64,000 nt of DNA from Lobosporangium transversale (GCF_002105155.1 NW_019028980.1:1240001-1304000); one strand, 5' to 3'; numbered from the stretch's first letter, positions 11,459-51,029 are shown. Translations and numbers: made by a program. The notes: generated by a model not told the origin, from the sequence alone.

Positions 11459-11825
11459 GAGATTGGCCCTGTGAAATTTTGTCTTCGCCACTTCGTCCTC
11501 GCCCACTTCGTCTTCGCCACCTTTGTTCTCCATCTTTGAAGTGTCTTTTTTTCTTCTCCTTCCACTCTCCTTTTCACACACCACCCATTTTCAACATCCT
11601 CCTCCTCTTTTCTTTCCTTCTATATCCTTCAACTTTTCTGTCGTATCTTTTAGACCATCTATACCCTATAATCTCTATAATCGTATCCGACTGCTCCACT
11701 GTAAGGTTTCCTTCACCAATATTTCTAACTGATTATCTTGCTAACGGAACATTCATCATTTAACAGCAACCATTGTTTTATCAGTTACAGTAAAAGGCTA
11801 TAGACTGTCAAAAAAAAAAAAAAAA

Positions 11826-14800
11826 ATGGGATCGCAGCAAAGCAAACCCCATTCAAGAAGAGACTTCAAGTGCGCAATCAAATGGGGTCGTACACGAAAA
11901 ACATTTCAGCTTCAGACAGCTCCCGCGACTTTGCAACTATCCCGAAAGAAATATTTGGATATGATATAGCTAGAGGGACCAAATATAGCTTACCCCCTCC
12001 AAACGCTTCTCTAGATGATATTCACCACCTCGTTTACTGCCTCAGAGTGCTCTCGACTGCACCAAAAGATCTCACAGACGAGGAGAAAGATTGGGTTTCG
12101 GTCATATCGGATGATAAAGATGAAAAAAAGCGACTTCGCAAAATGGCTCCGGATGTGGCTAAAATGTTTATTCGTGATAACAACAAGACCAAAGCTACTG
12201 TTGCTGAGGTCGTAATGCTGGCTCCGGTCCTCGACGATTATCATTATACGAAAGTGATCAGCACTTTGATCGACCTAATCAGTAAAGGTATTATGCTAGA
12301 GACTACTTTGCTAGAAGGGTTAGCTCAGCTGATACAGTATGCTTCTCCAGGATGCCTCAACTCTGATGATCTGGTCAATATCCTCATTCCCCTCAGTTCT
12401 CGTCTACAAGGCATTCACGAGCAGTCTAGCAGCCACATTTATCAACTGTGTGTAGCAGCCTCACATGTACTTGATGCCATGGTCAACAATCAAGTCGAGG
12501 GTCTGGAACGAAAACAGCATGAGGCACTAACAGCTTCCTTCAAGAGGCTGCGAGACAGTTCAGACCCTTATTTGGTATATCATGTAGCATATGCTTCTCA
12601 AGCTCTACTGTATATTCCAAATGATGAAACACTAATGCAAGCTATGCTTCGGCGTACATCAGCGGTTGTACAAGGTGTATTTGGATTAGTAAGTGCGGTC
12701 AAAGATATAAATCTAAGTGACTTCCTGCATGTGTACAACAATGTAGTCTCACTAGCCAAGAGCGGGGAGGCATTCAAGCAGTGTATGGAAGAAGGCTTTA
12801 GCTTCAGTCGCAAGGCCGCATGGTATCCAGCACTCCGTAGAGTTGATGCATTCCTCCAATTAGGTGAGCTCACCAATTTCAGGACTCTCGTATGTGAAGC
12901 ACCCTGTCGACGAGAACCAGCATTCCAATGGGGATTATGTCAACGCTTAGGTCAGATTGCAGCCGATACACGATGGAACATGAAAGTTCGTCAATATGCG
13001 GTCACTTTTCTTGGAGAGATGTACAAAAATGACAAGGATTGGGGCGACTATGTGGGGATCAAGCGATGTATCATTGGTATACTGAAGAGACTGACCTCAC
13101 TGTCAAAGGATGACATACAAAGTGAGTAGACAATAAGTCTCATCCTTAGTTCACCATCATTGGTTCACTTGTGAGGATCAGAGGAACTGACATTGATATA
13201 TTTATCGTGCTCTACATAAATTTCTTTGTAGCGGCAAGACTGCTTCTGTGTAACCTTGCTATGGATGGAGATACTAAAAAACAACAGCTCTACAAGGATT
13301 GTTTCCAGGAGCCAGAGCCACACCCCTTCATTTACATACCGTCGCCACTTGAATCTCCGTCATTGGTTGATCGTGTGCAGGACAGACCTGATGTCGGGGG
13401 GAGTTTGCGTATACTCAAGCAACAGCGGAAGAAGGCAAGAGGCGACAAGTTCTTCTACATTGACCAATATGCCAAGGCGAGTCCTCAAGCTAGTGATGAC
13501 AAATCGTTTCTATTGATGGACAAAGTGAACGAGTTCTTGAAGAGCGAGCAGAAAGTGCTGCTTATCCAAGGTGATTCAGGAGCAGGCAAATCGACATTCA
13601 ACCTTGCTTTGGAGCGTACTCTATGGGAATCATTTCGAGAGGGAGATGACGGGATCCCATTACTCATTAACCTGCCAGCCATCGACAACCCAGCCAACGA
13701 TATGGTCGCAAAACAGCTGCAAATACATGGTTTCACCAAGAAACAGATCAAAGAGTTGAAGAAGAATCGGGCATTCATCTTGATCTGTGATGGATATGAT
13801 GAGATTACGCTGCCCGGCAACCTTTATTTCACCAACCGCCTCAACCAGTCTGGCGAATGGAAGTGTCAGATGGTGATTAGTTGTCGCAGCGAGTACCTTG
13901 GGATAGACTATCGAGATCGGTTCCAGCCTATGGGCCGCAACCACCAAGCAGATACTGGTTTGTTCCAAGAGGCTGTGATTATACCATTCTCTGAGGATCA
14001 GATTGATGAGTACATCAAACAGTATGTCGTAAGCAAAGACATATTGTGGAGTGTAGAGGACTATCAGCGTGTGCTCAAGACGGTTCCTAGTCTACAAGCG
14101 CTTGTGAAGAACCCATTCATACTTTCAATGTCCTTGGAAGTATTGCCACGTATGGTTGATCCACGTCAAGACATTTCTAAAGCTCAGATCAAGCGCATCA
14201 CACTATATGACCAGTTCATTGAGTTGTGGTTTGAGCGTGGCAAGAAGCGACTAGGCGAGAGATCAGCGGCAAACAGTGCAGACAGGGATATGTTTCAAGC
14301 ATTATGTGATGAAGGGTTCGCACAGAATGGAGCCAGATACTTGAAAGAGCTGGCTGTTGCAATCTATAAGCATCAAGGAGGCAATCCAGTCGTAGAATAT
14401 CGCCCGTTCAAACACGGGGGCACATGGAAAGACCAATACTTTAGCAGAGAGAGTAGGAACTACCTCCTGCGAGGGGAATCACCTCTAAAACGCACAGGCA
14501 ACCAGTATCGGTTTGTCCATCGGTCTATCCTAGAGTACTCTATGGCGTTAGCGACCTTTGAGCAAAAGGAAGTGACGAATGCGACTGTAAATGATCAGGG
14601 AACAGCAGCGGAATACGGTGAGACTTCACCTCTGGTATGGAGAAGCTTTGTGGACGAGCCATCTATCCTTGAATTCCTGAAAGAGCGTGTCGAAATAGAA
14701 TCAGAGTTCAAAGAACAGCTGTATAAGTATGTTGAACTGTCGAAGAGCGACAAAAGATGGCGGATAGCGGCAGCAAATGCAATGACAATCTTAGTCCGAG

Positions 14801-17088
14801 CAGGGAAGTCGTTCACTGGGGCGAACTTGCAGGGCATCCGGATCCCAGGAGCCGACCTTAGCCATGGGATATTCGATTGTGCTCAGCTACAAGGAGCGGA
14901 TCTAAGTGGCGCCAACCTTCGTAGCTGCTGGCTTCGCGGAGCAGACCTGAGCGGGGCAAAGGTGGGAGGCGTACAGTTCGGAGAATGGGCACTTCTTCGT
15001 GAAAGGGGAGCGATAATCCAAGGGTCATATTCACCTGATGGTAGAACATTTGCTGCAGCTGTATACAGCTTTTATACCAAGGAAAGCTATGTCAGCATCT
15101 ACGATACATCGACATGGGAGAAACGTATGACTTTGGGTGCCGATGTGAGGGACAACTGCTCCTCTACCGACTTTATCTACTCTCCAGACAGGCTACACAT
15201 TGCCATATGGTACAGACATGACAGGAGTATGATTTTTGTGTTCGATATAGCAACAGGCAGAGAAATCCATAAGCTGGAGGGTCATGCAGCCGTTGTCTGT
15301 TGTGCAGCATACTCACCAGATGGCAGCCATCTCGCATCAGGTGGCGGAGATGGATCAGCGTACGTGTGGGATACTAGGTCTGGGGTGGTTCAGTACAGAT
15401 TAAAGGGACACAATGGTGAGGTGACAAGCATGGCATATTCGCCTAATGGGAAATGCGTTGTGACGGGAGGCGAAGACAAGGCGGTACGGCTATGGGATGC
15501 AGCATCAGGGAAGCCAATAGTGGTGCTCCAGGGCTGTGAATCTCGAGTTGAGCAAATTTTATGTTCGCCTAACAGTCAGAAAATCATTGTTCGTTCTTAC
15601 GATACACTGAATGTGTGGGATGCTAAATCTGGCCAGAGGATTTGGGCCTTGAAACATAACGGCCATGTCAGCGGTGTTCAATATTCGCCCGATGGGAAAT
15701 ATGTTGCTTCGTTCTCCGAGAATACAGCATTCCAGTGGAATTTGCAAACAGGAGAAGTCACTCATGCCCTTTCAGGCCATTACGATCGGATCAGAGACTT
15801 GAAATACTCACCGAATGGAGAGCAGCTAGCCACTTGTGCTTCGGACAGTACAGTGCGACTTTGGGATGCTCGATCGGGGCAGTTGATCAGCACATTTTAT
15901 GGCCACTCCCGTACATATAATGACATAAATGGTGTGGCATATTCGCCAAACAACTCTCAGGTTGCATCATTCAGTGAAGGTGAAACTATACGCCTGTGGG
16001 ACACGCAATCACGACAATCAAGCCATGATTCATATGGTCACACAAAATCAGTTCACCGAGTAAAGTTTTCGCCGGGTGGGCAGCAAATAGCCTCATGCAG
16101 CCCCCGGGATACAGTACGAGTGTGGAATACTCAAACGGGACAATGTATTCATATTTTACAATCCGATACGTTCGATGTAAAGTATTCGCCAGACGGCCAA
16201 CTGCTTGCCTTTCACAACTACAATGATGAGCGCGTTCACCTTTGGGATACTGTATCGGGCCAAGCTGTTCACACCATGGACCCGCAGAAACAGAGCCATA
16301 GCGGCTACGCCTTTGATATTTCACCAATTGACCCCCAAATTGCCTGTGGTGATTACAGCAGAAACGTGGGTGTGTGGGACATGCAAACAGGACAATGCAT
16401 ACGTACCCTGAAGGGGGAGGGCAGTACTGTGAAGCGTGTGTTATTCTCCCCCAATGGTCATCAGATTGCTTCTTATGACTCAAGTGGGAGGATCATAGTC
16501 TGGGCAGCGCGCTCAGGGAAGCTCCTGTATGTCCTGCGTGGGTTGAAAGCCGATGAACTATTTGAGGGTTTTTTAGTTTATTCACCTAATAGTCAGAGGA
16601 TAGCATTTATCCATGACTACAAAACACTCCAATTATGGAATGCAGAAACAGGCAAGCTGTGCTACAAAAGAGTCCTCGATGATTTCCAACAACACATCGC
16701 ATTTTCACCGTGCAGTCGACAGCTGCTTGTTGGAAGTAAAAATGGGTCAATTGTCATGGTAGGCACTGAGTCAGGAGCTTTGTTGCATAAGTTTACAGGG
16801 CATACCAACACTATAACCGCCATATCTTATCCTTGTGACGGTCAGTACATCGCCTCAAGCAGCTATGACGGTACTGTACGGCTGTGGGATTCAGAGTCAA
16901 GCAAGTGCTTGGCTGTCATCCCATTTGCAGATGGATATGTTCAAAGCCTTGCATGGAGTAATGCCGAAGGAGGGCACTTACTGGCGACAGGGCATGATGG
17001 GGGTTGTATTCGAATGTGGAAGATTGCTAAGGATGAGCATGACCGATGCCATCCTCGCCAGTCGCTGCACAGTTCGTCCAGCTTCTAA
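11826..17088 (+). CDS. NLR-B: ARM-like + NACHT + pentapeptide + WD40, lacking the N-terminal helical domain and conserved C-tail; intron 13122-13231. Orthologous ATG 11826 is out of frame by 1 nt; in-frame ATG 11882 gives 1698 aa
   Basis: Same phase-1 intron as the paralogs; Walker A GDSGAGKS and Walker B LICDGYDE intact. The 5' end ATGGGATCGCAGCAAAGCAAACCC aligns with the NLR-E start ATGGGATGGATGCAAAGCATGCCC. The A5 run at 11897-11901 would need to be A6 to keep that frame. Confidence 0.8.
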
Positions 17089-18651
17089 TATGATTCAAGC
17101 ATAAATAGCATTATACCCTTTTCCCATAATATAAACGACACTCAATCTACCCTTAATCCTATGCCTTCTGGCCAGGCCTTTTGCAGCTTCCAAAAAAGCA
17201 AGCCATGTAACCAAGACAGCGCAATCTATGCCATCCGGGCTCGCTGGAGTAGAAAGCGATGCTTTGGATACGAAATTGCAAAGAGGCAACTTTGGAGAGT
17301 GAAGTAGCTATTTATTTGTGGTAAATATAGCAAGAGTAACGATTATGAATTTGCGTATCTTTTCTAAGTGGGTCGTAAGACAGTATCGATAGTTGACCAG
17401 CGTCATGAGAAGAACATACATGTCGATGCAGGGAAATGTCTTACTCTCACACCGTTTTTTCATTATTTTACTTTACAATATTAAGCCACATAGACTACAT
17501 GTACTTGCTGGATTGATATCTCCTTAGTTCCTTATGCTACTCAACCACTCTAGCATCCTGCAATAAGCTCCATATATTATAGTATGGAAGCAGTATTTGA
17601 AGTGTATTTTAAGACGAGGATATAGTGTTCTAGAGCAAACGTGGGTTTGTGTTCACGTTCATGCTTATGAAAGGTAGCATATTTACTTGGCATAGAGACA
17701 GTCAAAGGACGAAGTCAATTGGTCATTTCTGAAGAACTTTCAAAATGAGGCCGTGAAGAAAAAAAAAAGGTGTAAAGCAAATTAACGGGTAACATTGGTA
17801 AAGAGAGACCTTCAGGAAAACCACTTGAGAACGCGAATGAGGTTTAGATAATGAGTAATCTAAAATAAGACAATGAAGATAGGTGAATCAAAAGAATAGG
17901 GGAATACCAAAGATGGATGTTTGAATAGAAGAGCAAGGAAAAAAAAGGGGGCTAGCTCGACATTTCCACAGATCAATCTCCGAAATAAGAGACGATGCAC
18001 AATGCTCTGACAATAGGAAGAATTGTCTTTGTCACTATAGATGATTTCCTATATGGGCGAAGTACAGCCACTGTTTCTATTTTCTATTTATATGCATGAA
18101 AACAAAAGAAAAGGCAACAACTATAATGTTTGTGGCCAACTCTCTTTCCTTGTGGCACAGATCTTGATTCCTGAATTATGATTATGGGACAACCTTTGCC
18201 TTTACTCAGTCGATACATTACTGTAATATTCAAATTGTGTGAAACAACGTAATGAAAAGTGAGAATCAGATGCGGGGGAAGACCCCTGCTTAGATATTTG
18301 TACCACTTGGATTACATACTTATCCCCTCCGAAGTATGCTGCAAGATCTTGAGCGGGAAAATTTTCCTTGAATTGAGCAAAAAAACCACACATGTCAAAG
18401 CCATATTTACTTTTTCACATCTATTTTCCCTTTTGTTTTCCTTCTCTTTTCTCTCTTACATCACACTAAACCCATCCCTTATCAGAAAGCACCATTTACA
18501 TAATTACATGCTTAGGAATATTTGTAAGTATAAAAAAACATCGATCATCCCTACAACCGTATCTATCTATAGTATTATCTAATAATGGCTCTTAATTCAT
18601 TGAAATCAGTAGAGCACAAACTATAGAAGTGGAAAAAAAAGACAATAGCTA

Positions 18652-21600
18652 ATGTTTTGTATTCCGCTGGCTTCATCTGGAGGGGTCCTCTCGCCAACAA
18701 TGGCTCTAGAGCTCTTCAACCTTTACATGGAGGACGTCCAAAGAATAGACAATGACGATGGCGCCCTCACAGAGCTGTGTCTCGATGCAGACTTCGCACT
18801 ATCTCGAATAGAACGGTCAGAGAGAAAGTATCTAGCCTCTTCACATTCTATTGAAGATAAAACGCTTTGCCAAAGTATTGGTTCGGCCCATTCTGAAGTA
18901 GCTCGCCTATTCGATCGTTTAGATCGCTCATTTGATGCTAAGAAAAGCGCCAGAAAAGCAAAAAAGTGGGGATATGTCCAAGGGAACAACATTATCCGCC
19001 AGGAGCCATCACAACCTGACAACTCCATTAAGGATAGCAGTAGCAGCATTAGCAGCACCAACGGCAACAGCAATATAAGCAACAGCATTATCAACATCAA
19101 TAACAATAGCAACAATGATAACACCGCCCTAGCATTGAAGAGGATGATTAGAGCAGCGAGAATCGGAGCAACACAGAGTATCGCAGTTGTTTCCACAGAC
19201 ATATTTGGCCAGGACGAAGCTCGGGTAGTCAAGTACAGCCTGCCCCTTCCAGATGCCTCTCTGGATGATATCTACCACCTTGCCTACTGTCTCTGCCTGC
19301 TTCGTACTGCAAACCAACCGCAAAATGAAATTACAGTTCAGGAGCAAGAATGGTCCTTAGCTACATTAAATGATCAAGATGAGCTAGATCGACTTCACAA
19401 CCTAGCTTCAGACGTGGTTACGACGTTTATTCGGGATGATATTAAGACCGAGAGTGCTGTTGCTGAGGTTGTAATGCTAGCTCCAGCTCTCGACAGTAGG
19501 CAATACAGGAAAGTGCTCACTCATGGCTTTGATTAATAGAATCAATGAGAGCGCCATGCTGGAGGCTCATTTGCTGCAAGGATTGGCTCGACTGATGCAA
19601 CATACTTCTCCTGGCTATCTTGAGTCTGATGATCTGGAAAACATCCTCAATGCTCTCAGTTCTCACTTACAAAGCATGCATGCACAAACCGGCGATCACA
19701 TCTATCGGCTATGCATGACAATCTCAAGTGTACTCGATGCTATGGTCAACAGCCAAGTCGAGGGCCTGAAGCGAGTGCAGCTCCATGAGCCATTAGCAGC
19801 CTACTTAAAGGGACTGAAAGACAGTTCAGATCCTCATCTAGTATACTATGCAGCATATGCTTACCAAGCCCTGTTGCATATTTCAAATGATGAAACACCA
19901 ATGCAAGCTATGCTTTGGCGTACACCGGCAGTGATTCGAGGGTTTCCTGGAGGGCAGAGTGCAATAAAAGAACTTGATCAAAATACCTTTATGAATGAAC
20001 TGATCAATATCCAGAAAGAGCTTCCGCCTGCGACAAACGCTTCAAACATGTGCCGCCGTTTCTTCAATAGAGTTGCTTCGCTGTGGAGGGGTGGGGAGAC
20101 ATTCAAGCAATGTGTGGAAGAAGGGCTCAGCTTTAGTCGTATGTGTGCATGGTACCCAGCACTTCGTGGAGCTGACATGTTGCTCCAGCGAGGCGCGGTC
20201 ATCAAGTTCAAGGCACTTGTGTGTGAGGTGCCCTGCCGACGAGACCCTGCATTCCAATGGGGACTATGTCAGAGGTTAGGACAGATTGCAGCCAATACAC
20301 AATGGGCTATGAAGACTCGCCAAAATGCGATCGCATTTCTTGGAGAGATGTACAAGAATGATAAGGATTGGGGTCATCATGTGGAGATCAAACGATGGAT
20401 TGTCGCCATATTGGAGAAACTGATTCTGTCGTCAAAGGATGGCCTAAGGGGTGAGTTGATATCGTATCTCATTGCTAGCTCGCCATCATCGGCACTAATA
20501 CCAGTAATGCACTGCGCTCCACATGTGTTTTCTAGTAGCTGCAGAGACACTCCTGAGGAGCCTTGCCGCAGATAGAGATGTCAGCAAGCAACAGCTCTAC
20601 AAGAAATACCCCTTTATTGCCACATCATTTCAACATGGGTCTCCATCATTACTTGAACGTGTGCAGAATAAACCTGATGCCGAGAACAGTTTGCGTATAC
20701 TCAAGCGACAGCGGATAGGGACTAGAGAAGACAGACACTTTTATATTCAGCAATATGCTAAAGCGAGCACTCATGCGAGCGATGATGAGTCGTTTTTGTT
20801 GATGGACAGGGCGAAGGAATTCCTGGGCAGCGACCAGAAAGTGTTACTTATTCAAGGCGATCCAGGGGCAGGCAAGTCGACATTCAACCGTAATCTAGAG
20901 TCCACTCTGTGGAAGTCCTACCAAAAGAACCACGGTCAGATCCCATTGTTCATCGATATATCAGCCATCGATGACCCAACAAAGGATATGGTCGCAAAAC
21001 AGCTACGGATTTATAGTTTCACTGAGGAGCAGATCAAGGAGCTGAAGAGGACTCGATCATTCATCTTGATCTGTGATGGATACGATGAGATCACACAAAC
21101 CGACAATCTCTACTCCACCAACCAGCTCAATCAGCCTGGCGAGTGGAAGTGCCAGATGGTGATCAGCTGTCGCAGTGAGTATCTTGGGGCAGATTACCGA
21201 GACCACTTCCAGCCTATGGACCGCAACCACCAAGCCTTTGCTGGATTGTTTCAAGAGGCTATGATTGTACCCTTCTCTGAGGATCAGATCGATGACTACA
21301 TCAAGCAGTATGTCACAACAGTAGCAACCGTGGGCCCGGAGTGGGGTGTAGAAGACTATCAGCGCGCACTCAAAATGATCCCTAACCTACTAGAGCTTGT
21401 GAAGAATCCATTCTTACTGTCACTGTCGCTAGAGGTACTACCACGGATAATGGGCTCATGCCAAAGTATCTCTAAAATGGCAATCAAACGCATTACATTA
21501 TATGACCAGTTTATTGAGCTATGGTTCGAACGAAGCAAAAAGCGACTAGGCGCGATTTTGAAGCCTGAAGATAGGAAGATGCTCCAAATATTATGTGAGG

Positions 21601-23590
21601 GGGAGTATACGCAAAATGGGATCAAGTATATGACAGAACTGGCTGTGGCAATCTACAAGCACCAAGATGGTAACCCAGTGGTGAGTTACTCTTCATCCAA
21701 GCACGGGGGTACATGGAAGGAGGAGTACTTTAGCAGAGAGAGCAAGAAGCGCCTTCTACGAGAAACATTGCCTCTGCGCCGTACAGGCGATCAGTATCGA
21801 TTTGTCCACCGGTCTATTTTGGAATACTGTGTTGTGCGAGCGATTTTTGAGCCACAAGAAGCGGAGAGTATGAGCGCAAGCGACAGAGAGGGATCATTGA
21901 CACTGAATTACCCCTGCCATAGTGTCAGCTCTGTGACCACCTTTGGAACTGAAGATAACAAAGTAGGTGAGCAGGAAGCAGAGTCGGCCAAGGCAGATAA
22001 GGCCTCACCTTTGGTGTGGAGAAGCTTTGTGAACGAGCCATCTATCCTTGAGTTCCTGAAGGAGCGTGTCGAAACCGAATCGAAGTTCAAGCAACAACTG
22101 CATAAATACGTTGAACTGTCGCAGAGCGATAAGAAATGGGCGATAGCAGCGGCGAACGCAATGTCTATCTTTGCCCGGACAGGAGAGCCGTCCGCCGAAG
22201 TAGGCTTGCGAGGCAGACAGACTCCAGAAGCCGACCTAAGTCGCGATGTATCTGATTGCGCTCAGCTACAAGAGGAAGATACGGAGGATAGCAGCCTTCG
22301 TTCCTGTTGGCCTCAGGAAACAAACCTTAGTGGGACAAAGATGGAAGGCGTACAGTATGGAGAACGAACTGCTCTCTGCAAAGAGGGGCAAATACACCGG
22401 GGATTATATTCTCCTGATGGCAAGGCCTTTGCTGCAGCTGTGCGTAATGATGATACCAAAGAGGACTATGTCAGCATCTACGATACATTGACATGGCAGG
22501 AGCGTGTGACTTTGGAAGTCAATGTCTTTGGAGACAGCTTTATCTTCTCTCCAGACAATCAACATATTGCTATATGGTATGACGATAGTACAGTTTCTGT
22601 AGTTGACATCACATCCGGCACAGTGGTTCATAGGCTAGAGAGCCATACAGACATTACTATCCATGCGGTATACTCGCCAAATGGTGATTATCTCGCCTCG
22701 GGCAACAGAGATGGATCAGTGCATGTGTGGAATGCCAGATCTGGCATGATCCAATACACATTAGAGGGTCACGATGGCGGAGTAACAAGCATAGCATATC
22801 CATTTGATGGGAAGCAAATCGCAACTGGAGGTGAAGACGAGACGGTACGACTATGGGATACCACAACAGGGGAGCTGGTGCTGATGCTCCAAGGCTGCGA
22901 ATCCCCAGTTATGCAAATCATATATTCGCCTAACGGTCAAGAAATTATCACTCGTTATTTCGACTGCATTTTACTAGATGTATGGGATGTCAGGTCTGGT
23001 CAGAAGAAGTGGGTCTTGGAGCATGAAGATAGTGTCAGAGGTGTTCAGTATTCTCCTGATGGGGAATACGCCGCTTCTTTTTTCAGGAATATAGTATTCC
23101 AGTGGAATATGCAAACAGGGAAAGTCATTTACGCTCTTAGAGGCTCCAGTCCCTTCAGCATCATCGCTGACTTGAAATATTCACCAAAAGGGGAACAGAT
23201 AGCTACCTGTGCTTGGGACAATACAGTGGGGCTGTGGGATGCTCGATCAGGACAACTGGTCCACACATTCTATGGCCACTCTTCTATGATATGGGGCGTG
23301 GCGTATTCGCCAAACAGTCGTCAAGTTGCATCATTCAGCAAGGATGGGACAATACGCTTGTGGGACATATGATCATCGTATTCTAGTTGTGATTCATGTG
23401 TTCAGGCACCCGAGTAAGACTTTTATCGGAAGAACAACTTTTAGCCTCATGCAGCAGCGACAATATAGTGCGTGTATGGGATAGTCGGATAGGACAGTGT
23501 ATCCAAGTCTTACAGAACCGAGAAGAGAGCATCAAATATCTACATGGCGATCAGTTAATTGAAGGGCGCTGTGCTCTTTTCACTGTTTAA
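18652..23590 (+). pseudogene. NLR-C: disrupted paralog (4-bp duplication frameshift at 19516-19523, intron 20451-20538, premature TGA at 23370-23372, WD40 array truncated)
   Basis: CTCACTCA stands where paralogs have CTCA. NACHT motifs are present (GDPGAGKS). The pentapeptide consensus is eroded. A frameshifted WD remnant (LASCSSDNIVRVWDSRIGQC) follows the stop and homology ends near 23565. Confidence 0.85.
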
Positions 23591-31434: not shown

Positions 31435-34400
31435 GGTCGAGGTTTGTGCATAACATCATTACTTCTCACCTTAAATATCTTTTGTTTACAGAGTTCATGC
31501 TGGAGTTCAGAGAAACTTTTTACAGAACGTTTGTATCATTGAAGGCCTGGTACTGAGGGAATAGCAGCCTGGCAAGTAAACCATATAGCTATCTTATTGT
31601 AGAAATGAGATAAATAACTAAATAACTAAAAACTGTGAAAGCATGGAAACCTCACTCTACTAGTCCGACATGTATACTCCTCTCATGGTGCTGATCAGTT
31701 ACTATCAGATTTGATGTTTAAACCACTTAGGATGAAATGTGCATCTCCACACTTGTCGCATTCGCTACATTTGCTACAAATGAATTAATATCCCTTACTT
31801 TCTCCACTTTTAGGCCTTGCTCTGACCCTGTCCCTCTTTGAGGTCGTATCCAACACATTGCTTTCCACTTCTCCGGTCCTAGGTAGCGTAGATGTCGCTG
31901 TATTGGTCTCATAGCTTGCTTTTTTAGAAGTCGGGCACTGCACTGGGTCACCAACAGCTTCATGTTGTTCCAAAAGCTTTCTGTTAGCTTCACTCAACCC
32001 AGATACATCTCGAATGTTTACTTTGTGAGCGTTAAAAGGCTGTTGCTCCGTGCTCCACTTCAGTCGGATATGGCACTGGCCATACTCATCCTTAACAATC
32101 CGCCACATCCGGATAGAGCCACCTTCATATGCTGTTACTAGAAAGTGACCTTCTCCGGTAACATTCCATGCAAGGCTTGTAATACCTTTGTATATATTCG
32201 GGAGAACAGCCAAGCACTGGGCTAACTTTGCGTCCCATAGTTGTACAACTGTATATTCACCAAGTGAGGCGAAGTACTGGCCATCGCTAGAATAAGAAAA
32301 GCTTATACGTCCGGCATGTCCTTCAAGTATATGTAACACCACCCCTGATTCTGTATCCACCACGCTAATTGATCCACTATAAGCCCCAACAGCCACCAGC
32401 TGGCTGGATGGTGAGAATGCAATGAATCGTTGTTGACAATCGAAATTCGTTTCGGAACAAAGCTCGCCTGTTTCTGCATTCAGTAGCTGGAGGATATTGT
32501 CGTTCTGAATCAGTGCTATCTTCTGGCTGTCAGGCGAGTAAACCATTGAATGACTGCCCCTAAACTCATAAAGATAGTTCCCTGAATGCGCTACCCAGAC
32601 TTTGACTATATCACCTTGACCGCGACAAGTAATCTGGCGACCACAAGGTGAGAATAATATATCCCACAAATCGCCCCCATACTGCAAAGTACACACGAGC
32701 TTTTCAGCTTGTGTGTCCCATACATCTACTTGTCCACTTTTATAGCCAATTGCAATTTGGTGGCCAACTGGTGAAATATCAAAGGCATTGATCTCATCGC
32801 TTTTGGCTTGTGATTCCAAGACAAGGGCAGGCTGGCCTGTTCCAGTATCCAGAAGGTGAACACGATGATCACTGTAGTCATAAAATGCAAGCAGCTGACC
32901 ATCAGATGAATACTTGATGCCAAATGCTTTGTTTTTCAAGGCGCGAACACATTGTCCTGTTCGACTATCCCATACACGCACTGTACCGTCATCGTAACTG
33001 CATGTGGCCATGTACTTCCCATCCGGTGAAAGCCTTGGTGTGTCGATATCAGATATATGACCATAGGACACATGTCTAGATTGGCCTGATTGTGTGTCCC
33101 ACAGTCGTATCGTTCCATCTTCGCTGAATGATGCAAGCTGATGGTTGTTTGGCGAATATGTCACATCACATATCATGTTAGGGTGAGCATAAAGTGCGTT
33201 TAGTTGTCCTGATCGAGCATCAAAAATGCGTACTCTATGGTAATAAGCTATAGCTATCTGTTCTCCATTTGGTGAATATTTCAAGCATTTGATGTAAGTG
33301 GTATGGCCTTTAAAAGTATAGATGACTTCTCTTGTTTGCATATTCCACTGATATGCTGCATCCATGGAAAACGTAGTGGCATATTTCCCATCAGGTGAAT
33401 ACTGAATACCCTTAACGGATTGTCCTTTATGCCACAAAGTCCACTTCTTCTGACCAGACCTAGCATCCCATACATCTAGTGACCTACTGTCGTCATAGCG
33501 AGTGATGATCTCCTGGCTGTTAGGTGAATATACAATTTGCAAGAGTTGAGATTCCATATCTTGGAGTATCAGAATGAGCTCTCCTGATACCGCATCCCAT
33601 AGCCGCACTATCTTGTCTTCGCCTCCAGTTGCAATCTGCTTCCCATCTGGCGAATACACCACGCTTTTCACCGCACCAGTATGGCCCTCTAATGTGTATT
33701 TGATTGTGCCTGACTTGGTATCCCACAGATGTACTGGTCCATCCTTGCTTCCTGAGACGAGATGATTTCCATCAGGTGAGTATACTACACATTCGACAGT
33801 GCCTGCATGGCCTTCTAACTTATGAACTTCTACCCCTGATATTATATCAAACACATAAACCACACTGTCGCCTCTGTACCATATGGCAATGTGTCTACTG
33901 TCTGGGGAGTATGTAAAATTGATGGAGCGGCTTTCGTACTTATTGATCCCCAAAGTCATACACTTCTCCCATGTCAGAGTATCATATATGCTGACATGGC
34001 TCTTTTCGATGTCACGATTATACACAGCTGCAGCTAATGTCTTGCCATCAGGCGAGTATGACCCTTTCTCTGCATTCCCCTCTTCTTTCAGGAATGCCCA
34101 TTCTCCAAACTGTACACCTGACATCTTTGCTCCACTCAGATCTGCCTTCTGAAGCCAACAGCCTCGAAGATCGACTTTTCTCAAGTCTGCTCCTTGTAGT
34201 TGAGCACTATCAAATATACCATGGCTAAGGTCGGCTCCTGGGATCTGGATACCTCGCAAGTCTGCTTCGCTGAACGACTCTCTTGCTCGGACCAGTATCG
34301 TCATTGCATTTGCTGCTGCTATCCGCCATCTCTTGTCGCTCTTCGATAGCTCAACATACTCATACAGCTGCTGCTTGAACTTTGGTTCAATCTCAACACG

Positions 34401-37400
34401 CTCTTTCAGGAACTCAAGGATCGATGGCTCATCCACAAAGCTTCTCCACACCAAAGGTGATGTCTCATCTGCTTTTGTTGAGTCAAGTTCATCCCCATAT
34501 GCTTTAATCCCTTCCACTTCAAAGCTGAATACAGAGCTGACACTCTGTCGGCGACATTTCAGTGCTGTTGCTGCTACTGTATCACCTGCAGCCGTATTCA
34601 TCTCTTTCCGTGGTTCGAACATCGCTCGTACCACACAGTACTCCAGAATAGACCGATGCACAAACCGATACTGATTGCCTGTACGGCTCAGAGGTGATGC
34701 TTCTCGAAGGAGGTGTTTCTTGCTTCCTCGGCTAAAGTACTCTCTCTTCCATGCTTCTTTGCGCTTGCATGGGTACTCCACCACTGGGTTGCCATCTTGA
34801 TGCTCGTAGATTGCTACTGCCAGTTCTGTCAAGTACCTAATCCCATTCTTTGCGAACCCTTCCTCACACAGTATCTGGAGCATCTCTCTATCTGTGCTAT
34901 CTGTTGTCGATATCTCACTTAGTCGCTTCTTGCCTCGTTCGATCCACGACTCAATGAACTGATCATACAGTGTGATGCGCTTGACCTGTGTTGTGGAGAT
35001 GCCTTGATGTGGGTCTATCATTCGTGGCAGCACTTGTAGTGCCATCGATAGTATGAATGGGTTCTTTACAAGCTCTTGTAGACTAGGGACCATCTTGAGT
35101 GCACACTGATAGTCCTCCACACTCCACAATATGCCTATACTTGCGACATACTGTTTGATGTACTCATCGATCTGCCTCCCAGAGAATGGTACAATCACAG
35201 CTTCTTGGAACAATCCAGCATCTGCTTGGTGGTTGCGGTCCATAGGCTGGAAGCGACTTCGATAGTCTACTCCAAGATACTCACTGCGACAGCTGATCAC
35301 CATCTGACACATCCATTCGCCAGCATGGTTGAGGTTGTTGGTAACATACAGGTTCTTGGTCTGCATGGTCTCATCATATCCATCACACACCAAGATCAAT
35401 GACCGACTCCTCTTCAGTTCCTTGATCTGCTCACTCGTGAAGTCATACATCCGCAATTGCTTTGCAACCATATCTTTTGTTGGGTCATCGATGGCTGGCA
35501 GGTTAATGAACAGTGGGATGCGGCCATGGTTCTTTTGATACGCTTCCCACAGAGTGGACTCTAGATTGCGGTTGAATGTCGACTTGCCTGCTCCTGAATC
35601 ACCTTGGATGAGCAGCACTTTCTGCTCGCTCTTCAAGAACTCGTTCACTTTGTCCATCAATAGGAACGATTCGTCATCACTAGCTTGAGGATTCGCTTTG
35701 GCATATTGGTCAATGTAGAAGAACCTGTCGCCTCTTGTCTCCATCCGCTGTTGCTTGAGTAAACGTATGCTCTTCTCCACATCAGGCTTATTCTGTGCAC
35801 GATCGAGCAGTGATGGAGATGCAGGTGAAGGCAAGGTGGCAGTGAAAAGATGCTGTGTTGTTGGCTCATTGATATCTCTATCCGCAGCAAGGTCATGGAG
35901 GAGTGTCTCTGCAGCTACAGAGGAATACATGTGGAACATAGTGTACTATGCTTATTAGTATCGCTGCTTTTTGCAACTGAACCAACGACCTAATATTGAG
36001 GTAGCATGACTACTCACCTTGCAGGCCATCCTTCGTCGACAAGGCCAGCCTCTTGAGGATAAATATAATCCATTACTTGATCTCAGGATGGTGACCCCAA
36101 TCATTGTCATTCTTGTATATCTCTCCAAGGAGAGCGACTGCATCTTCTCGAATTTCAAGGGTCGACTCTGTGTTGGCTGCAAGCTGTCCTAAGCGCTGAC
36201 ATAGACCCCATTGGAACTCTAGCCTTTGTCGACAAGGTGACTTATACACAAGGGCCTTGAACTTGACGATCTCGCCTGTCTGGAGGAATGCATCAATTCC
36301 ACGGAGTGCAGGATACCATGCACTCTTGTGACTAAAGCTGAGTCCTTCTTCCATACACTGCTTGAATGTAACCCCACTCTCATACAGTGAAACTGCGTTG
36401 TTGTACATACTCAAACTCTTGTCAATAGCTCTTGTCACAGATGGAAGCTGCTTTTGAATGTTGGTTAGCTCGTCCATAAAGACATTTAGATCCAGGTCTT
36501 TGATTGCACTCACTACTCCAAACACTCCTCGAGCCACTGCTGATGTACGCCGAAGCATAGCTTGCATTAGCGTCTCATCATTTGGGATATATAGCAAAGC
36601 TTGAGAAGCATAGGCTGCATGGTATGCCAGGTGAGGATCAGAGCTCTCTTGTAGTTCTTTCAAGTAGGCTGCTAGTGGTTCATGGAGTTGTTCTCGCTTC
36701 AGACCCTTGACTTGGTTGTCGACCATGGCATCCAGCACATGTGAGACTGTCACACACAGTTGATAGATGTGACTGCCACACTGTGAATGCGTGCTTTGTA
36801 AGCGAGAACTGAGGATATTGAGGATGTTGACCAGATCATCAGAATCGAGGTATCCAGGAGAAGCATGCTGCATCAGCTGAGCCAGTCCTTCGAGCAAATG
36901 AGTATCCAGCATGATATTCTGACTGATTCTGTTGATCAAGGCCATGAGCACTGCCCTGTATTGATCATAGTCAAGGACTGGAGCCAGCATCACAACCTCA
37001 GCAACAGCAGGCCCATTCTTGACACTCTCCTGGATGAAGATTGCAATGACATCTGAAGCCAGGTTGTAAAGTCGGAGTTGCTCATCTTGATCATTCGATA
37101 TGGCTAGGAACCACTGTTGCTCCTGGTCTGTGAGAGCAGTCAGTGATCGATGTGCGGTGTGAAGCAGACTAAGGCAGTAGACAAGCTGATGGGTACTATC
37201 CAGATGAGCACCTAGGTCAGGCAGACTGTACTTGTGCACCACTGGAGGGACATCGTGGTCAAATATTTCTTTTGAGGAAGTTGGAGGCTTATGGGTTGTA
37301 GAGGCCTCTGGTGCTTTGATAACATTGTCCGCTCCATTGGTATGGGCATTGGTACTTTGTTGAGCACTTTTGTTACTGTTGCTATTGACGCTGTTGTCAC

Positions 37401-38212
37401 TTTGAGTACCATTGCTGTTGCTGCTTTCATTATTGTTACAATCGTGATCATCTTTGCTTATGTTGGCAGGTTGGTGAAGCGTATGAGAACTGTCTGAAGC
37501 TAGATTGGCTTGTCGTACATGACCCCATTCGGCTGCGTACTTGTGGCCTCTTTTCGAATGATCTGGATGACCAAGATTGTCGAATAGCTCACCGATATCA
37601 TTCAGAGCAGCACCGATTGTTTTACACAATGTTTTATCTGTTGAGGCTGAGAGAAGAGACTTTCGTTCAGACCGGTGTATTCGAGAAAGAGCACTCTCAG
37701 CATCCAAACAGATCTCCAAAGCGAGCACAGGGTCGTTTGTCTTGTGTGCATGTTCCAAGTAGATGGTAGCAAGGTCTAAGGCTTTTTGAGGTAGGAGCTG
37801 ACTCCGTTTGGGCATGCTTTGCATCCATCTCATTTCTTCTTCTTTTCTTTCCCAGCCAGAAGTCGGTTAAAGCAATAGTGATTTGTTAGATTGATGACGT
37901 TTCATTAGCAAAGCAACCAACCAACTAGTTAATCGTAGTGAAGGAAGCCTTACAATGAAGGACTTGAGAACATGAATGGTGTATAAGATAGTCTACAATA
38001 CGACGGAGAAGTCGAGTAATATAAAAGGGAGAGGGGAGAATGGGAAAGAACAGTGAAAGGAGAAAAAAAAAAAAAGAGAGCAGTTCGACACCTCAACGAT
38101 GGGGAACAAGGTGGCGAAGGCGGTTAAAATAAATAAAGAAATAAATATACACAATGGTATAATATTTCTTTGAAGCGACATCTTTACGAACACCATGGCT
38201 TTTTTTGCATAC
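31435..38212. repeat. Left arm of a ~6.8-kb inverted duplication (NLR-D plus flanks)
   Basis: Its reverse complement aligns with 43266-50078 across promoter, CDS, intron and 3' flank (e.g. TTCTCTGAACTCCAGCATG, CATTTCTACAATAAG). Ends approximate. Confidence 0.85.
31785..37833 (-). pseudogene. NLR-D: near-copy of NLR-E with an in-frame TAA at 36075-36073; exons 37833-36018 and 35914-31785; NACHT-WD40 exon fully open
   Basis: GAG ATC AAG TAA TGG versus GAG ATC AAG CAA TGG in NLR-E. The 103-nt intron 36017-35915 is homologous to that of NLR-E. No other frame disruption seen before the terminal stop. Confidence 0.8.
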
Positions 38213-43265: not shown

Positions 43266-46200
43266 TATGCAAAGTAAAAAAAAAAAAAAAAAATCTTGAT
43301 GGTTTACACAAAGAAAATATTGCGCCCCCATCTTTTTTTTTTTTGACTGCCTTCGCCGCCTTGTTCCCCATCATTGAAGAGTCGAACCACTCCCATTTTT
43401 TTTTCTTTTCCTTCCACTATTCTTTCAGCACATCATCCATTCTTCCATCTCCCTTTTATATTGCTCGACTTCTCTGTCGTATTATAGACTATCTTATACA
43501 CATTCACGTTCTCAAGTTCTCCACTGTAAGGCTTCCTCCGCCGTCATTAACTTGTTGGTCGCTTTGCTGATGAAACATCACCAATCTAACGAACCGCTAT
43601 TGCCTTTATCAATTACAGGCTGTGAAAGAAAAAAACAAAGAAAAATGGGATGGATGCAAAGCATGCCCAAACGAGGACAACTCCCGCCTCAAAAAGCCTT
43701 GGACCTTGCTACCATCTACTTGGAACATGCACACAAGACAAACGACCCTGTACTCACTTTAGAGATCTGCTTGGATGCTGAGAGTGTTCTTTCTCGAATA
43801 CACCGGTCTGATCGAAAGTCTCTTCTCTCAGCCTCAACAGATAAAACATTGTGTAAGGCAATCAGTGCTGCTCTGAATGATATCGGTGAGCTATTCGACA
43901 ATCTTGGTCATCCAGATCATTCGAAAAGAGGCCACAAGTACGCAGCCGAATGGGGTCATGTACGACAGGTCAATCCAACTTCAGATAGTTCAGGCACACT
44001 TCATCAAGCCACCAACACAAGCAAAGATGGCTACAGTGATAGCAATAATGAATATGGTGACAACAACAACAACAGCAGCAATAGTAACAGCAATAATAAC
44101 CAGTGTAACAACAGGGACAATAACAGCGACAACAAAAGTTCTCAACAGGATACCGGCACCTATACCAATGGAGTGGACGATACTATCAAGGCACCAGAGG
44201 CCTCTACAACCCACAATCCTCCAACTTCCTCAAAAGACATATTTGACCATGATATACCTCCAGTGGTGCACAAGTACAGTCTGCCTGATCTAGGTGCTCA
44301 TCTGGATGGTACCCATCAACTCGTCTACTGCCTTAGTCTGCTTCATACTGCACATCAATCACTGACTGCTCTCACAGTCCAGGAGCAACAGTGGTTCTTA
44401 GTCACATCGAATGATCAAGATGAGCAACTCCGACTTTACAACCTGGCTTCAGATGTCATTGCAATCTTCATCCAGGAGAGTGTCAAGAATGGGCCTGCTG
44501 TTGCTGAGGTTGTGATGCTGGCTCCAGTCCTTGACTATGATCAATACAGGGCAGTGCTCATGGCCTTGATCAACAGAATCAGTCAGAATATCATGCTGGA
44601 TACTCATTTGCTCGAAGGACTGGCTCAGCTGATGCAGCATACTTCTCCTGGATACCTCGATTCTGATGATCTGGTCAACATCCTCAATATCCTCAGTTCT
44701 CGCTTACAAAGCACGCATTCACAGTGTGGCAGTCACATCTATCAACTGTGTGTGACAGTCTCACATGTGCTGGATGCCATGGTCGACAACCAAGTCAAGG
44801 GTCTGAAGCGAGAACAACTCCATGAACCACTAGCAGCCTACTTGAAAGAACTACAAGAGAGCTCTGATCCTCACCTGGTATACCATGCAGCCTATGCTTC
44901 TCAAGCTTTGCTATATATCCCAAATGATGAGACACCAATGCAAGCTATGCTTCGGCGTACATCAGCAGTGGCTCGAGGAGTGTTTGGAGTAGTGAGTGCA
45001 ATCAAAGACCTGGATCTAAATGCCTTTATGGACGAGCTAACCAACATTCAAAAGCAGCTTCCATCTGTGACAAGAGCTATTGACAAGAGTTTGAGTATGT
45101 ACAACAACGCAGTTTCACTGTATGAGAGTGGGGTTACATTCAAACAGTCTATAGAAGAGGGGTTCAGCTTTAGTCACAAGAGTGCATGGTACCCTGCACT
45201 CCGTGGAGTTGATGTATTTCTTCATTCAGGCGAGATCACCAAGGTCAAGACCCTTGTGTATAAGTCACCTTGTCGACAAAGGCTAGAGTTCCAATGGGGT
45301 CTATGTCAGCGCTTAGGACAGCTTGCAGCCAACACAGAGTCAACCCTTGAAATTCGAGAAGATGCAGTCGCTCTCCTTGGAGAGATATACAAGAATGACA
45401 ATGATTGGGGTCACCATCCTGAGATCAAGCAATGGATTATATTTATCCTCAAGAGACTGGCCTTGTCGACGAAGGATGGCCTGCAAGGTGAGTAGTCATG
45501 CTACCTCAATATTAGGTCGTTGGTTCGGTAACAAGAAGCAGCGATACTAATAAGCATAGTACATTATGTTCCACATGTATTCCTCTGTAGCTGCAGAGAC
45601 ACTCCTCCATGACCTTGCTGCGGATAGAGATATCAATGAGTCAACAACACAGTATCTTTTCACTGCCACCTTGCCTTCACCTGCATCTCCATCACTGCTC
45701 GATCGTGCACAGAATAAGCCTGATGTGGAGAAGAGCATACGTTTACTCAAGCAACAGCGGATGGAGACAAGAGGCGACAGGTTCTTCTACGTTGACCAAT
45801 ATGCCAAAGCGAATCCTCAAGCTAGTGATGACGAATCATTCCTATTGATGGACAAAGTGAACGAGTTCTTGAAGAGCAAGCAGAAAGTGCTGCTTATCCA
45901 AGGTGATTCAGGAGCAGGCAAGTCGACATTTAACTGTAATCTAGAGTCCACTCTGTGGGAAGCGTATCAAAAGAACCATGGCCGCATCCCACTGTTCATT
46001 AACCTGCCAGCCATCGATGACCCAACAAAGGATATGGTTGCAAAGCAACTGCGGATGTATGGCTTCACGAGTGAGCAGATCAAGGAACTGAAGAGGAGTC
46101 GGTCATTGATCTTGGTGTGTGATGGATATGATGAGACCATGCAGACCAAGAACCTGTATGTTACCAACAACCTCAACCATGCTGGTGAATGGATGTGTCA

Positions 46201-49200
46201 GATGGTGATCAGCTGTCGCAGTGAGTATCTTGGAGTAGACTATCGAAGTCGCTTCCAGCCTATGGACCGCAACCATCAAGCAGATGCTGGATTGTTCCAA
46301 GAAGCTGCGATTGTGCCATTCTCTGAGGATCAGATCGATGAGTACATCAAACAGTATGTCGCAAGCATAGACATATTGTGGAGTGTGGAGGACTATCAGT
46401 GTGCACTCAAGATGGTCCCTAGTCTACAAGAGCTTGTAAAGAACCCATTCATACTATCGATGGCACTACAAGTGCTGCCACGAATGATAGACCCACATCA
46501 AGGCATCTCCACAACACAGGTCAAGCGCATCACACTGTATGATCAGTTCATTGAGTCGTGGATCGAACGAGGCAAGAAGCGACTAAGCGAGATATCGACA
46601 ACAGATAGCACAGATAGAGAGATGCTCCAGATACTGTGTGAGGAAGGGTTCGCAAAGAATGGGATTAGGTACCTGACAGAACTGGCAGTAGCAATCTACG
46701 AGCATCAAGATGGCAACCCAGTGGTGGAGTATCCATGCAAGCGCAAAGAAGCATGGAAAAGAGAGTACTTTAGCCGAGGAAGCAAGAAGTACCTCCTTCG
46801 AGAAGCATCACCTCTGAGCCGTACAGGCGATCAGTATCGGTTTGTGCATCGGTCTATTCTGGAGTACTGTGTGGTACGAGCGATGTTCGAACCACGGAAA
46901 GAGATGAATACGGCTGCAGGTGATACAGTAGCAGCAACAGCACTGAAATGTCGCCGACAGAGTGTCAGCTCTGTATTCAGCTTTGAAGTGGAAGGGAGTA
47001 AAGCGGATGGAGGTGAGCTAGATTCAGCCATAGCAGATGAGACATCGCCTTTGGTGTGGAGAAGCTTTGTGAATGAGCCATCGATCCTTGAGTTCCTGAA
47101 AGAGCGTGTTGAGATTGAACCAAAGTTCAAGCAGCAGTTGTATGAGTATGTTGAGCTATCGAAGAGCGACAAGAGATGGCGGATAGCAGCAGCAAATGCA
47201 ATGACGATACTGGTCCGAGCAAGAGAGTCGTTCAGCGAAGCAGACTTACGAGGCATCCAGATCCCAGGAGCTGATCTTAGCCATGGTATATTTGATAGTG
47301 CTCAACTACAAGGAGCAGACTTGAGGAAAGTCAATCTTCGCGGCTGTTGGCTTCAGAAGGCAGACCTGAGTGGAGCAGAGATGTCAGGTGTACAGTTTGG
47401 AGAGTGGGCATTCCTTCAAGAAGAGGGGATTGCAATGAAAGGATCATACTCGCCTGATGGCAAGACACTAGCTGCGGTTGTGTATAATCGTGACACCAAG
47501 GAGAGCCATGTCAGCATATATGATACTCTGACATGGGAGAAGCGCATGACTTCAGAGATCATTATTGGCGGCTTCATTAATTTTACATACTCTCCAGACA
47601 GTGGACGCATTGCCATATGGTACAGAAGTGACAGTAGTGTGGTTTATGTGTTTGATACAGTATCAGGGGTAGAAGTCCATAAGTTGGAAGGCCATGCAGG
47701 CACCGTCGAATGTGTAGTATACTCACCTGATGGAAATCATCTCGTCTCAGGAAGCAAGGATGGACCAGTATATGTGTGGGATACCAAGTCAGGCGTGATC
47801 CAATACACATTAGAGGGCCACACTGGTATGGTGGGGAATGTGGTGTATTCACCGGATGGGAAGCAGATTGCAACTGGAGGCGAAGACAAGATAGTGCGGC
47901 TATGGGATGCGGTGTCAGGAGAGCTCATTCTGATACTCCAAGGGTGGGAATATCAACTCTTGCAAATTGTATATTCACCTAACAGTCAGGAAATCATCAC
48001 TTGCTGTGGTGGCAGTAGGTTACTAGATGTATGGGATGCTAGGTCTGGTCAGAAGAAGTGGACTTGGGAGCATAAAGAAGGTTCCGTTGAGGGTATTCAG
48101 TATTCACCTGATGGGAAATATGCCGCTACGTTTTCCCAGTACGCAGTATATCAGTGGAATATGCAAACAAGAGAAGTCATCCATACTTTTGAAGACCATG
48201 ACGGTCAGATCAAATGCTTGAAATATTCACCAAATGGAGAACAGATAGCTATTGGTTATTGGGACTGTATAGTACGGATTTGGGATACTCGATCAGGACA
48301 ACTAAACGCAGTTTATTATCACCCTGACATGATATATGATGTGGCATATTCACCAAACAGCCATCAGCTTGCATCATTCAGCGAAGATGGAACGATACGA
48401 CTGTGGGACACACAATCAGGCCAATCTAGGCATGTGTCCTATGGTCATACATCTGATATCGGCACACCAAGGCTTTCACCGGATGGGAAGTACATGGCCG
48501 CATTCAGTCGCACTGACGATATAGTGCGTGTATGGGACAGTCGAACAGGACAATGTGTTTACGTCTTACAATACAAGCCAACTGACGTCAAGTATTCATC
48601 TGATGGTCAGCTGCTTGCATTTTATGACTACAGTGATCATCGTGTTCACCTTCTGGATACTGGAACAGGCCAGCCTGCCCTTATCTTGGAATCACAAACC
48701 AAAAGCGATGAGATCAAAACCTTTGATATTTCACCTGTTGGCCACCAAATTGCTTTTGGCTATAAAAGTGGACAAGTAGATGTATGGGACACACAAGCTG
48801 AAAAGCTCGTGTGTACTTTGCAGTATGGGGGCGATTTGTGGGATATATTATTCTCACCTTGTGGTCGCCAGATTACTTGTCGCGGTCAAGGTGATATAGT
48901 CAAAGTCTGGGTAGCGCATTCAGGGGACTATCTTTATGAGTTTAGCGGCAGTGATTCAATGGTTTACTCGCCTGACGGCCAGAAGATAGCACTGATTCAG
49001 AACGACAATATCCTCCAGCTACTGAATGCAGAAACAGGCGAGCTCTGTTCCGAAACGAATTTCGATTGTAGACCACTACCCATTGCATTTTCACCATCTA
49101 GTCAGCTGGTGGCTGTTGGGGCTTATAGGGGATCAATTAGCGTGGTGGATACAGAATCAGGGACGGTGTTACATATACTTGAAGGACATACCGAGTATAT

Positions 49201-50078
49201 AATGGACCTTTCTTATTCTAGCGATGGCCAGTACCTCGCCTCACATGACATAAACGATGTAAAGCTATGGGATGCAGAGTCAGGCCAGTGCTTGGCTGTC
49301 CCGAATATATACAAATGTATTACAAATCTTGCATGGAATGTTACTGGAGAAGGTCACTTTCTAGTAACAGCATATAGTAATGGCTCTACCCGGATGTGGC
49401 AGATTGTTAAGGATGAGTATGGCCAATGCCATGTCCGACTGAAGTGGAGCTCGGAGCAACAGCCTTTTAACGCCCATAAAGTAAACATTCAAGATGTATC
49501 TGGCTTGAGTGAAGCAAACAGAAAGCTTTTGGAACAACATGACGCTGTTGGCGACCCAGTGCAGCGCCCGACTTCCAGCGAAGCAAGCTATGAGGCCAAT
49601 ACAGCGATATCTACGCTACCTAGGATCAGTGAAGTGGAAAGTAATGTGTTGGATACGTCATCAAAGAGAGACATGACCAGAGCAAGGCCATTGCTCGCTA
49701 AAAGTGAAGGAAGCAAGGGATATCAATTCATTTGTAGCAAATGTAGTGAATGCGACGAGTGTGGAGATGCACATTTCATTCTAAGTGGTTCATACGACAA
49801 ATCTGATAGTAACTGATCAGTATTGTGAGGAAGGGAGCATGCATGCCAACCTAATAAAGTAAAGGCACTCTGTGCTCCCACACCTCCTTAGCTAGTTAGT
49901 TATATATTTCATTTCTACAATAAGGTGGTCAAATGGCCTGCTTGCCAAGTTACTATCTCCTCAATATCAAGCCTTCAATGACACAGACATTTTGTAAGCT
50001 TCTCTGAACTCCAGCATGGACTCTGCAAATAAAAGGTGTTTTAAAGTGAGAGGAACGACGCTTTTACATAGCTCGACC
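43266..50078. repeat. Right arm of the inverted duplication (NLR-E plus flanks)
   Basis: Reverse-complement match to 31435-38212. Ends approximate. Confidence 0.85.
43645..49816 (+). CDS. NLR-E: intact full-length paralog, 2022 aa; exons 43645-45487 and 45591-49816
   Basis: ATG 43645 (MGWMQS...). Phase-1 intron 45488-45590 (GTGAGT...TACTAAT...TAG). GDSGAGKS, LVCDGYDE, pentapeptide repeats, WD40 array, GLSEANRKLL tail and a Cys-rich extension. Confidence 0.92.

Positions 50079-50954: not shown

Positions 50955-51029
<75 letters not shown>

Follow-up and report, generated by a model that had tools for sequence, protein, structure and literature searches.

The closest described systems are the HNWD/NWD proteins of Podospora anserina (HET-D, HET-E, HET-R), which, like the genes reported here, join a NACHT domain to WD40 propellers, include pseudogene members and are predicted to form a double propeller (available text of PMC12222747). 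In the accessible part of PMC1805685, the codons of the HNWD repeat under selection are 7, 9, 25 and 27, located in the d-a loop and the b-c turn. Top-face selection in NLRs of Dikarya fungi is documented, in the accessible sections of PMC1805685 and PMC4986451, for highly conserved, shuffling repeats, and the open part of PMC13449251 describes weaker balancing-selection signals for Podospora NLRs of low repeat conservation. A second family, the NACHT-WD40 NLRs that Mortierellomycota share with Mycoavidus cysteinexigens, has the same long alpha-solenoid N-terminus, NACHT and WD40 as the present genes (PMC11291939; 10.1101/2022.03.16.484565, each as far as accessible); we infer that the module called 'PPR' there is the pentapeptide repeat. 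Their accessible text covers where the family occurs and its likely transfer, but neither selection at the level of sites nor gene conversion nor the loss of identity among repeats, and in that of PMC11291939 the role of the family is left open. In the literature searched, with supplements and most subscription papers outside it, no study came up that tests these genes, fungal or Mycoavidus, for selection at individual sites.

The window (the whole 64-kb stretch of Lobosporangium transversale DNA that was analysed) holds five copies, A to E, of one large gene, two of which look intact. D and E lie in inverted orientation and are 91% identical across 6.8 kb. Spliced E comprises 2022 codons with a frame that is open throughout, and the introns in the window are GT-AG. 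The features, in window coordinates, are:

43645-49816, plus strand: gene E, inverted duplicate of D, a Mortierellaceae ARM-NACHT-pentapeptide-WD40 gene
43645..45487, plus strand: exon 1 of E, with the TPR-like helical domain, the Asn/Ser linker and the ARM solenoid
43687..43950 (aa 15-102), plus strand: N-terminal helical domain of E, TPR-like, AlphaFold pLDDT about 95
43969..44241, plus strand: Asn/Ser-rich linker of E, disordered, from sequence comparison with D and AlphaFold
45488..45590, plus strand: intron of E, 103 nt, GT-AG, from the sequence, the matching D intron being skipped in a putative RNA contig
45591..49816, plus strand: exon 2 of E, an open reading frame
45887..46360, plus strand: NACHT domain of E, PF05729, 37.1 bits versus a cut-off of 26.7
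47228..47344, plus strand: pentapeptide-repeat beta-helix of E, PF00805
47414..49450, plus strand: WD40 region of E, 16 degenerate blades, holding 50 differing top-face codons
47993..48251, plus strand: hot segment of E, blades 5-7, with 20 residue differences from D
31785..37833, minus strand: gene D, with exon 1 at 37833-36018, intron at 36017-35915 and exon 2 at 35914-31785
36073..36075, minus strand: premature stop TAA at codon 587 of D, where E has CAA, preceding the NACHT exon
32052..34091, minus strand: WD40 region of D
2206..8310, minus strand: paralog A, both exons open, 16 blades
11804..17088, plus strand: paralog B, without match to E aa 1-170 or to the C-terminal closing segment, likely broken as judged from its sequence
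18649..23372, plus strand: paralog C, broken, with a frame change near 19515 and a stop after blade 8

Between the head-to-head D/E repeats, about 5 kb (38139-43331) carry two unrelated reading frames without a Pfam hit, a segment that the inverted repeats could flip. The cluster is flanked on the minus strand (50500-52000) by an intron-rich gene that presumably resembles the beta subunit of succinyl-CoA ligase, and a further direct repeat pair, 67% identical, lies at the window end (60315-60744 and 63548-64000). In contigs of the sequencing runs D and E were merged, with depths of 16-18 versus 7-10 for unique flanks, and of 202 versus 113-123. With about twice the unique-flank depth in the merged contigs, D and E are more probably separate loci than alleles; the long flank pieces of the sequencing runs compared showed no other letters that would mark independent alleles, and one of these runs may itself underlie the window sequence. 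A third near-identical copy, considered from mosaic contigs, was dropped, these contigs being collapses of D and E at about twice the flank depth.

The earlier note took D for a working receptor, which cannot be upheld, as the spliced message seen cannot yield the NACHT or WD40 part of D. Its TAA was found in a DNA contig of run X3 and in a spliced contig of run X5, which skips the 103-nt D intron exactly; X1 and X2 carry E's letters at this site, in collapsed contigs. X5, which is RNA only by our guess, also covers 1071 bases of the WD40 region of E with 0 differences. D is likely a transcribed pseudogene, or the source of an N-terminal part only. Its truncated frame (36073-37833, minus strand), of which a spliced transcript exists, spans 586 aa with the TPR-like domain, the linker and most of the ARM; the product may serve as a decoy, or it may be broken down.

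E encodes, in order, TPR-like helices, an Asn/Ser linker, an ARM solenoid (Pfam ARM_5 PF23948, E 4e-76), NACHT, a pentapeptide helix and 16 WD40 blades. It has two of the hallmarks of an NLR-like STAND protein of the NACHT type, a nucleotide-binding domain (above the PF05729 cut-off) and C-terminal superstructure-forming repeats (the blades), and its order ARM_5, NACHT, pentapeptide, WD40 is that of the Mortierellaceae/Mycoavidus family. In the AlphaFold model of the WD40 region (pLDDT 93, pTM 0.84) the blades are predicted to form two propellers, blades 1-8 and 9-16. Apaf-1 obtained the top whole-model TM-score, 0.50-0.53, among the Foldseek matches listed; it is a STAND ATPase whose two propellers act as a clamp, like those predicted for E, at 19-20% identity. 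Apaf-1 carries NB-ARC and CARD domains and is a single conserved gene with a fixed ligand, unlike the E family. The N-terminal helical domain (aa 15-102) had no Pfam hit, and its fold search gave TPR-like matches at Z 8-9, which are common for helical bundles; its Atlas clusters were TPR (0.92-0.95) with low recognition, a weak assignment, and searches with exon 1 gave generic ARM/HEAT/TPR matches only. No known cell-death or death-effector domain was found at the N-terminus of E by Pfam and fold searches, the fold lists excluding nothing.

Several properties separate E from HNWD. The N-terminal HET domain of HNWD is absent in E, where a Pfam scan of exon 1 gave ARM_5 only, and the E family has extra ARM and pentapeptide domains and belongs to the Mortierellaceae lineage. 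HNWD repeats are at least 85% conserved, whereas the blades of E are mutually 27% identical on average (maximum 48%) and those of paralog A 25% (maximum 43%). HNWD alleles vary in repeat number; between the paralogs D and E no such change is seen, both having 16 blades, as does A. At only 27% identity between repeats, the repeat-shuffling mechanism of HNWD does not apply to E. The sensor of E would work in an HNWD-like way, yet E falls outside the HNWD family, as it has neither the HET domain nor the repeat conservation.

The comparison of D with E started from the earlier note's claim that their differences cluster in the loops of the WD40 top face. All 12 D/E residue pairs that it quoted were present in the protein alignment; they fall in the d-a loop or at the start of strand a (blades 1, 4, 5, 6, 7, 14 and 15), or in the b-c turn (blades 5, 6, 7, 9 and 15). 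The WD40 register was derived from unrelated proteins, using 473 of their regular repeat units, to avoid a post-hoc choice of sites, and numbered as in PMC1805685. Top and bottom faces were assigned by repeat topology, positions 5-9 and 24-27 being top loops and 14-18 and 33-37 bottom loops, and all WD40 codons were counted. The differences are not spread evenly: 50 of 146 top-loop codons differ versus 10 of 165 bottom-loop codons (Fisher p 1.6e-10). When the register was slid, the top-set count peaked at shifts 0 and +1 (50 and 51), with a trough of 8, and with strand limits taken from AlphaFold 47/135 top-loop codons differ versus 12/150 bottom-loop codons (p 2.4e-8). By blade, top-face changes range from 0 in blades 3 and 12 to 4-5 in blades 5-7, 9, 14 and 15, an uneven distribution that may outline a ligand cleft.

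NACHT (10 of 390 residues differing) and ARM (22 of 459) are near-identical in D and E compared with WD40 (115 of 683), as had been claimed. The claimed sparing of the scaffold holds for NACHT and fails for the strands, where 18/88 (a), 11/98 (b), 11/95 (c) and 13/85 (d) differ, or 11-20% of codons with AlphaFold-defined strands. WD40 is also not the most divergent part of the pair, which is the Asn/Ser linker (32/82 residues, dN/dS below 1); the C-tail differs at 12/55. One ARM patch, aa 500-539 of E (45142-45261), lies amid near-identical tracts and has 10 residue differences plus 6 silent changes; probably conversion passed it over, or it was brought in from another paralog.

The four codons selected in HNWD (7, 9, 25 and 27) differ in 23 of 59 cases versus 91 of 610 elsewhere in WD40 (p 3e-5). 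The proposed match to the Podospora positions, as given in the accessible part of PMC1805685, holds for the d-a/b-c surface, but the D/E variation covers more loop positions, WD40 positions 2, 10, 23 and 26 also being variable. Moving the four-codon set by -2 yields a count of 24, versus 23 in register, so D and E alone do not single out these four codons.

Selection was tested with custom pairwise or four-taxon likelihood code, not PAML or HyPhy. The excess of dN/dS over 1 that the earlier note expected was obtained for the top face, at 2.3-2.9 in all four models, but not for the whole WD40 domain (0.90-1.21), so the selection claim rests on site classes. With a shared rate, top-face dN/dS was 2.88 (p 1.8e-7). 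It came to 2.34 (p 1.8e-4) when double hits were allowed, to 2.50 (p 0.0056) when the top face had a rate of its own and to 2.29 (p 0.026) under both, and it stayed at 2.4-3.1 (p 3e-6 to 0.013) after removal of codons near gaps. For the four-codon set dN/dS was 3.9 with the shared rate and not significant with its own rate (p 0.072, 0.14), so that the top-face d-a/b-c selection known from HNWD is seen here in the top set, and in the four codons with the shared rate only. Model-defined top loops gave 3.3 (p 1e-8), but significance was again lost once they had their own rate (p 0.052, 0.14); overall, the strictest fits give borderline values (p 0.03-0.14). M2a, for which no sites are chosen beforehand, was favoured over M1a (LRT 55.4, p 1e-12, with a selected class of about 10% of sites at dN/dS near 20; LRT 20.6 with double hits), values that are nominal with respect to rate mosaics. 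The bottom loops (dN/dS 0.32) and NACHT (0.22-0.31) are under purifying selection, and ARM through pentapeptide gave 0.27-0.37. Among top-face codons differing by a single base, 26 changes are nonsynonymous and 3 synonymous; the blades 5-7 segment has 26.5 versus 3.5, a stretch picked post hoc. On a four-taxon tree (658 codons) top-face dN/dS was 3.41 on the E branch (p 0.0044), 2.31 on the D branch (p 0.15; D versus E p 0.35, not significant) and 1.48 on older branches (p 0.00055). As the signal lies on the branch of intact E, it is not an artefact of the broken frame of D. D and E show the reverse of what is described for TBLR1, a housekeeping WD40 protein whose benign variants keep away from the top face (PMC4754046, accessible part). 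The claim of positive selection on the WD40 top face is borne out by the partition, site-mixture and branch analyses, the simulations and other gene pairs, is borderline when the top face has its own rate, and is in our judgement highly probable.

The same surface was examined in other members of the family. Of seven other fungal pairs, three had top-face dN/dS above 1 at p<0.05, namely E/A (1.53), E/B (1.54) and A/B (1.64), all at p<0.01 and sharing branches. E/C (1.26, p 0.3) and the locus pair L016/L019 (1.08) showed no significant excess, and the fit of L021/L023, which reached its bounds, was counted as a miss. Three genomes titled Mycoavidus cysteinexigens gave 93, 143 and 141 family matches, which are matches and not copy numbers. 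These genomes (G001-G003, loci L033-L102) contain dozens of pentapeptide-WD40 genes with conserved repeats, many with open frames of only about 800-950 codons. From 30 loci returned, 40 selected stretches and earlier loci, 85 distinct WD40 regions were assembled, and ten close disjoint pairs of 79-88% identity were compared, of which six came from G002, two from G003 and two joined different genomes; these pairs are kin and not independent draws. Top-face dN/dS exceeded 1 at p<0.05 in 8/10 pairs, and in 2/10 it remained significant under own rate and double hits; the four-codon set exceeded 1 in 9/10 with a shared rate and in 5/10 under the strictest model. When these pairs were pooled, positions 6, 7, 9, 25 and 27 differed in 62-79% of codons, with dN/dS of 2.5-5.5, and positions 8 and 26 in 7% and 4%. 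The variable codons of Mycoavidus thus follow the HNWD pattern as far as given in PMC1805685 (7, 9, 25, 27), plus position 6. With 56-73% identity among the repeats of a Mycoavidus protein, exchange between repeats may contribute to the signal seen there. Highly repetitive bacterial and fungal WD40 proteins likewise have diverse hotspots in conserved repeats (PMC5587647, whose available text reports no dN/dS test for them); the D/E copies, unlike these, are not highly repetitive.

In the NACHT tree the five window copies group with L. transversale sequences (SH-aLRT 98). The branch that contains them has 38 fungal and 6 Mycoavidus sequences (SH-aLRT 99), and 37 of the 38 fungal sequences form a single branch (SH-aLRT 95) among Mycoavidus sequences; E thus groups with both halves of the Mortierellaceae/Mycoavidus family. 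As this was a quick LG+G4 tree with midpoint rooting, the direction of transfer rests on the accessible text of PMC11291939; the fungal family likely descends from Mycoavidus endosymbiont genes. The nearest named relatives of E are L. transversale proteins, up to 74% identical over the NACHT region and 54% over WD40, and a Mycoavidus protein is related at 56%. Sequencing run X7, which bears the same species label, has next to none of E's words, which is no proof of absence; together with named L. transversale proteins at only 54-74%, it hints at strain-level turnover.

The analysis establishes the architecture, the clustering in d-a loops and b-c turns, the premature stop of D, purifying selection on bottom loops and NACHT and, in most models, a dN/dS above 1 in the clustered loops. 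We consider it probable that the top-face changes between D and E, a duplicated pair of NLR-like genes, reflect positive selection for new specificity in a predicted two-propeller sensor. A role as non-self receptors is also rather probable. The earlier note's 'strong internal evidence' for recognition receptors is overstated, however, as selection reveals a diversifying binding surface and neither ligand nor output. Selection could be real and the proteins not immune receptors at all, but diversifying adaptors or parts of a genetic conflict, derived from host-manipulation proteins of the endosymbiont. Consistent with this, Pfam and fold searches found no HET, HeLo, amyloid or enzymatic effector and an N-terminus that is only TPR/ARM-like, the family is heavily expanded in Mycoavidus (by matches per genome), and its role is open in the accessible text of PMC11291939. 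NACHT with a C-terminal sensor, sites that match those of HNWD and a birth-and-death pattern are, in contrast, those of NLRs, and we regard the non-receptor alternative as improbable.

The selection itself could be mimicked by relaxed constraint, with top loops neutral, D drifting as a pseudogene, and gene conversion lowering silent divergence and so inflating dN/dS. The stop in D is real, and dN/dS outside the top face is 1.03 on the D branch. D/E divergence is 0.20 and 0.39 in the flanks versus 0.05 in the intron and about 0.05 at silent sites of ARM/NACHT, the flank values being close to the top-face dN of 0.23-0.26, and own-rate tests are borderline. Silent changes are patchy, with 168 codons lacking any (p 0.0002-0.002). 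Given silent divergence so uneven and so much lower than in the flanks, part of the ARM/NACHT identity is likely due to gene conversion; constraint, evident from the NACHT dN/dS, is therefore part of its explanation and not the whole. Against relaxed constraint, the signal is present on the intact E branch and on older branches, and the bottom loops, likewise exposed, are conserved. Of 69 silent sites lying 1-2 codons away from a changed top codon, only 4 differ; being that young, they argue that the top face is not merely an unconverted remnant. None of 240 simulations for the partition test, all with neutral top codons and 180 with added conversion mosaics (tracts of 3-50 codons) and double hits, matched the LRT of 27.2 or the 50 top differences. 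Relaxed constraint is accordingly quite unlikely in our view.

Least probable, and very unlikely, is that loops were swapped without selection, by multi-base mutations or by short tracts converted from other paralogs: although 24/146 top-face codons have 2-3 base differences, transversions are commoner on the top face (32/81 versus 32/114 elsewhere), a double-hit term improves the fits and summed contig depth points to further paralogs in the genome, dN/dS stays above 1 with double hits, the double-hit rate drops to 0.027 once a selected class is allowed, and a neutral process has no reason to follow a 42-codon register, one that recurs in Mycoavidus down to the single codon.

Under positive selection for new specificity, the two top faces would hold a foreign or non-self protein between them, like those of Apaf-1 and HET-E (PMC12222747, accessible part). 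NACHT would then exchange nucleotide and oligomerise, and the TPR/ARM N-terminus would recruit a partner for the output. After duplication, gene conversion has likely kept the ARM-NACHT chassis alike and point substitution has altered the sensor face, the repeats being too degenerate for shuffling of the HNWD type. D then lost its frame as part of birth-and-death turnover.

The setting of this selection is what gives it weight. Selection on the HNWD surface acts here in degenerate repeats and in an early-diverging fungus. The family concerned likely came from an endosymbiont, and its bacterial (Mycoavidus) copies show the same signature. D, E and A are natural variants of specificity on a near-constant chassis, so the question of the ligand is testable. 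A broader scenario is speculative and, on balance, doubtful: Mycoavidus would keep a large HNWD-like repertoire, diversifying at the propeller codons that also vary in Podospora allorecognition receptors, and Mortierellaceae hosts would have captured the module from it; the hosts would have lost repeat shuffling but would go on varying this surface through point mutations, on a chassis homogenised by conversion, sensing bacterial or endosymbiont proteins. If true, it would amount to a host-symbiont recognition race that uses one shared receptor family.
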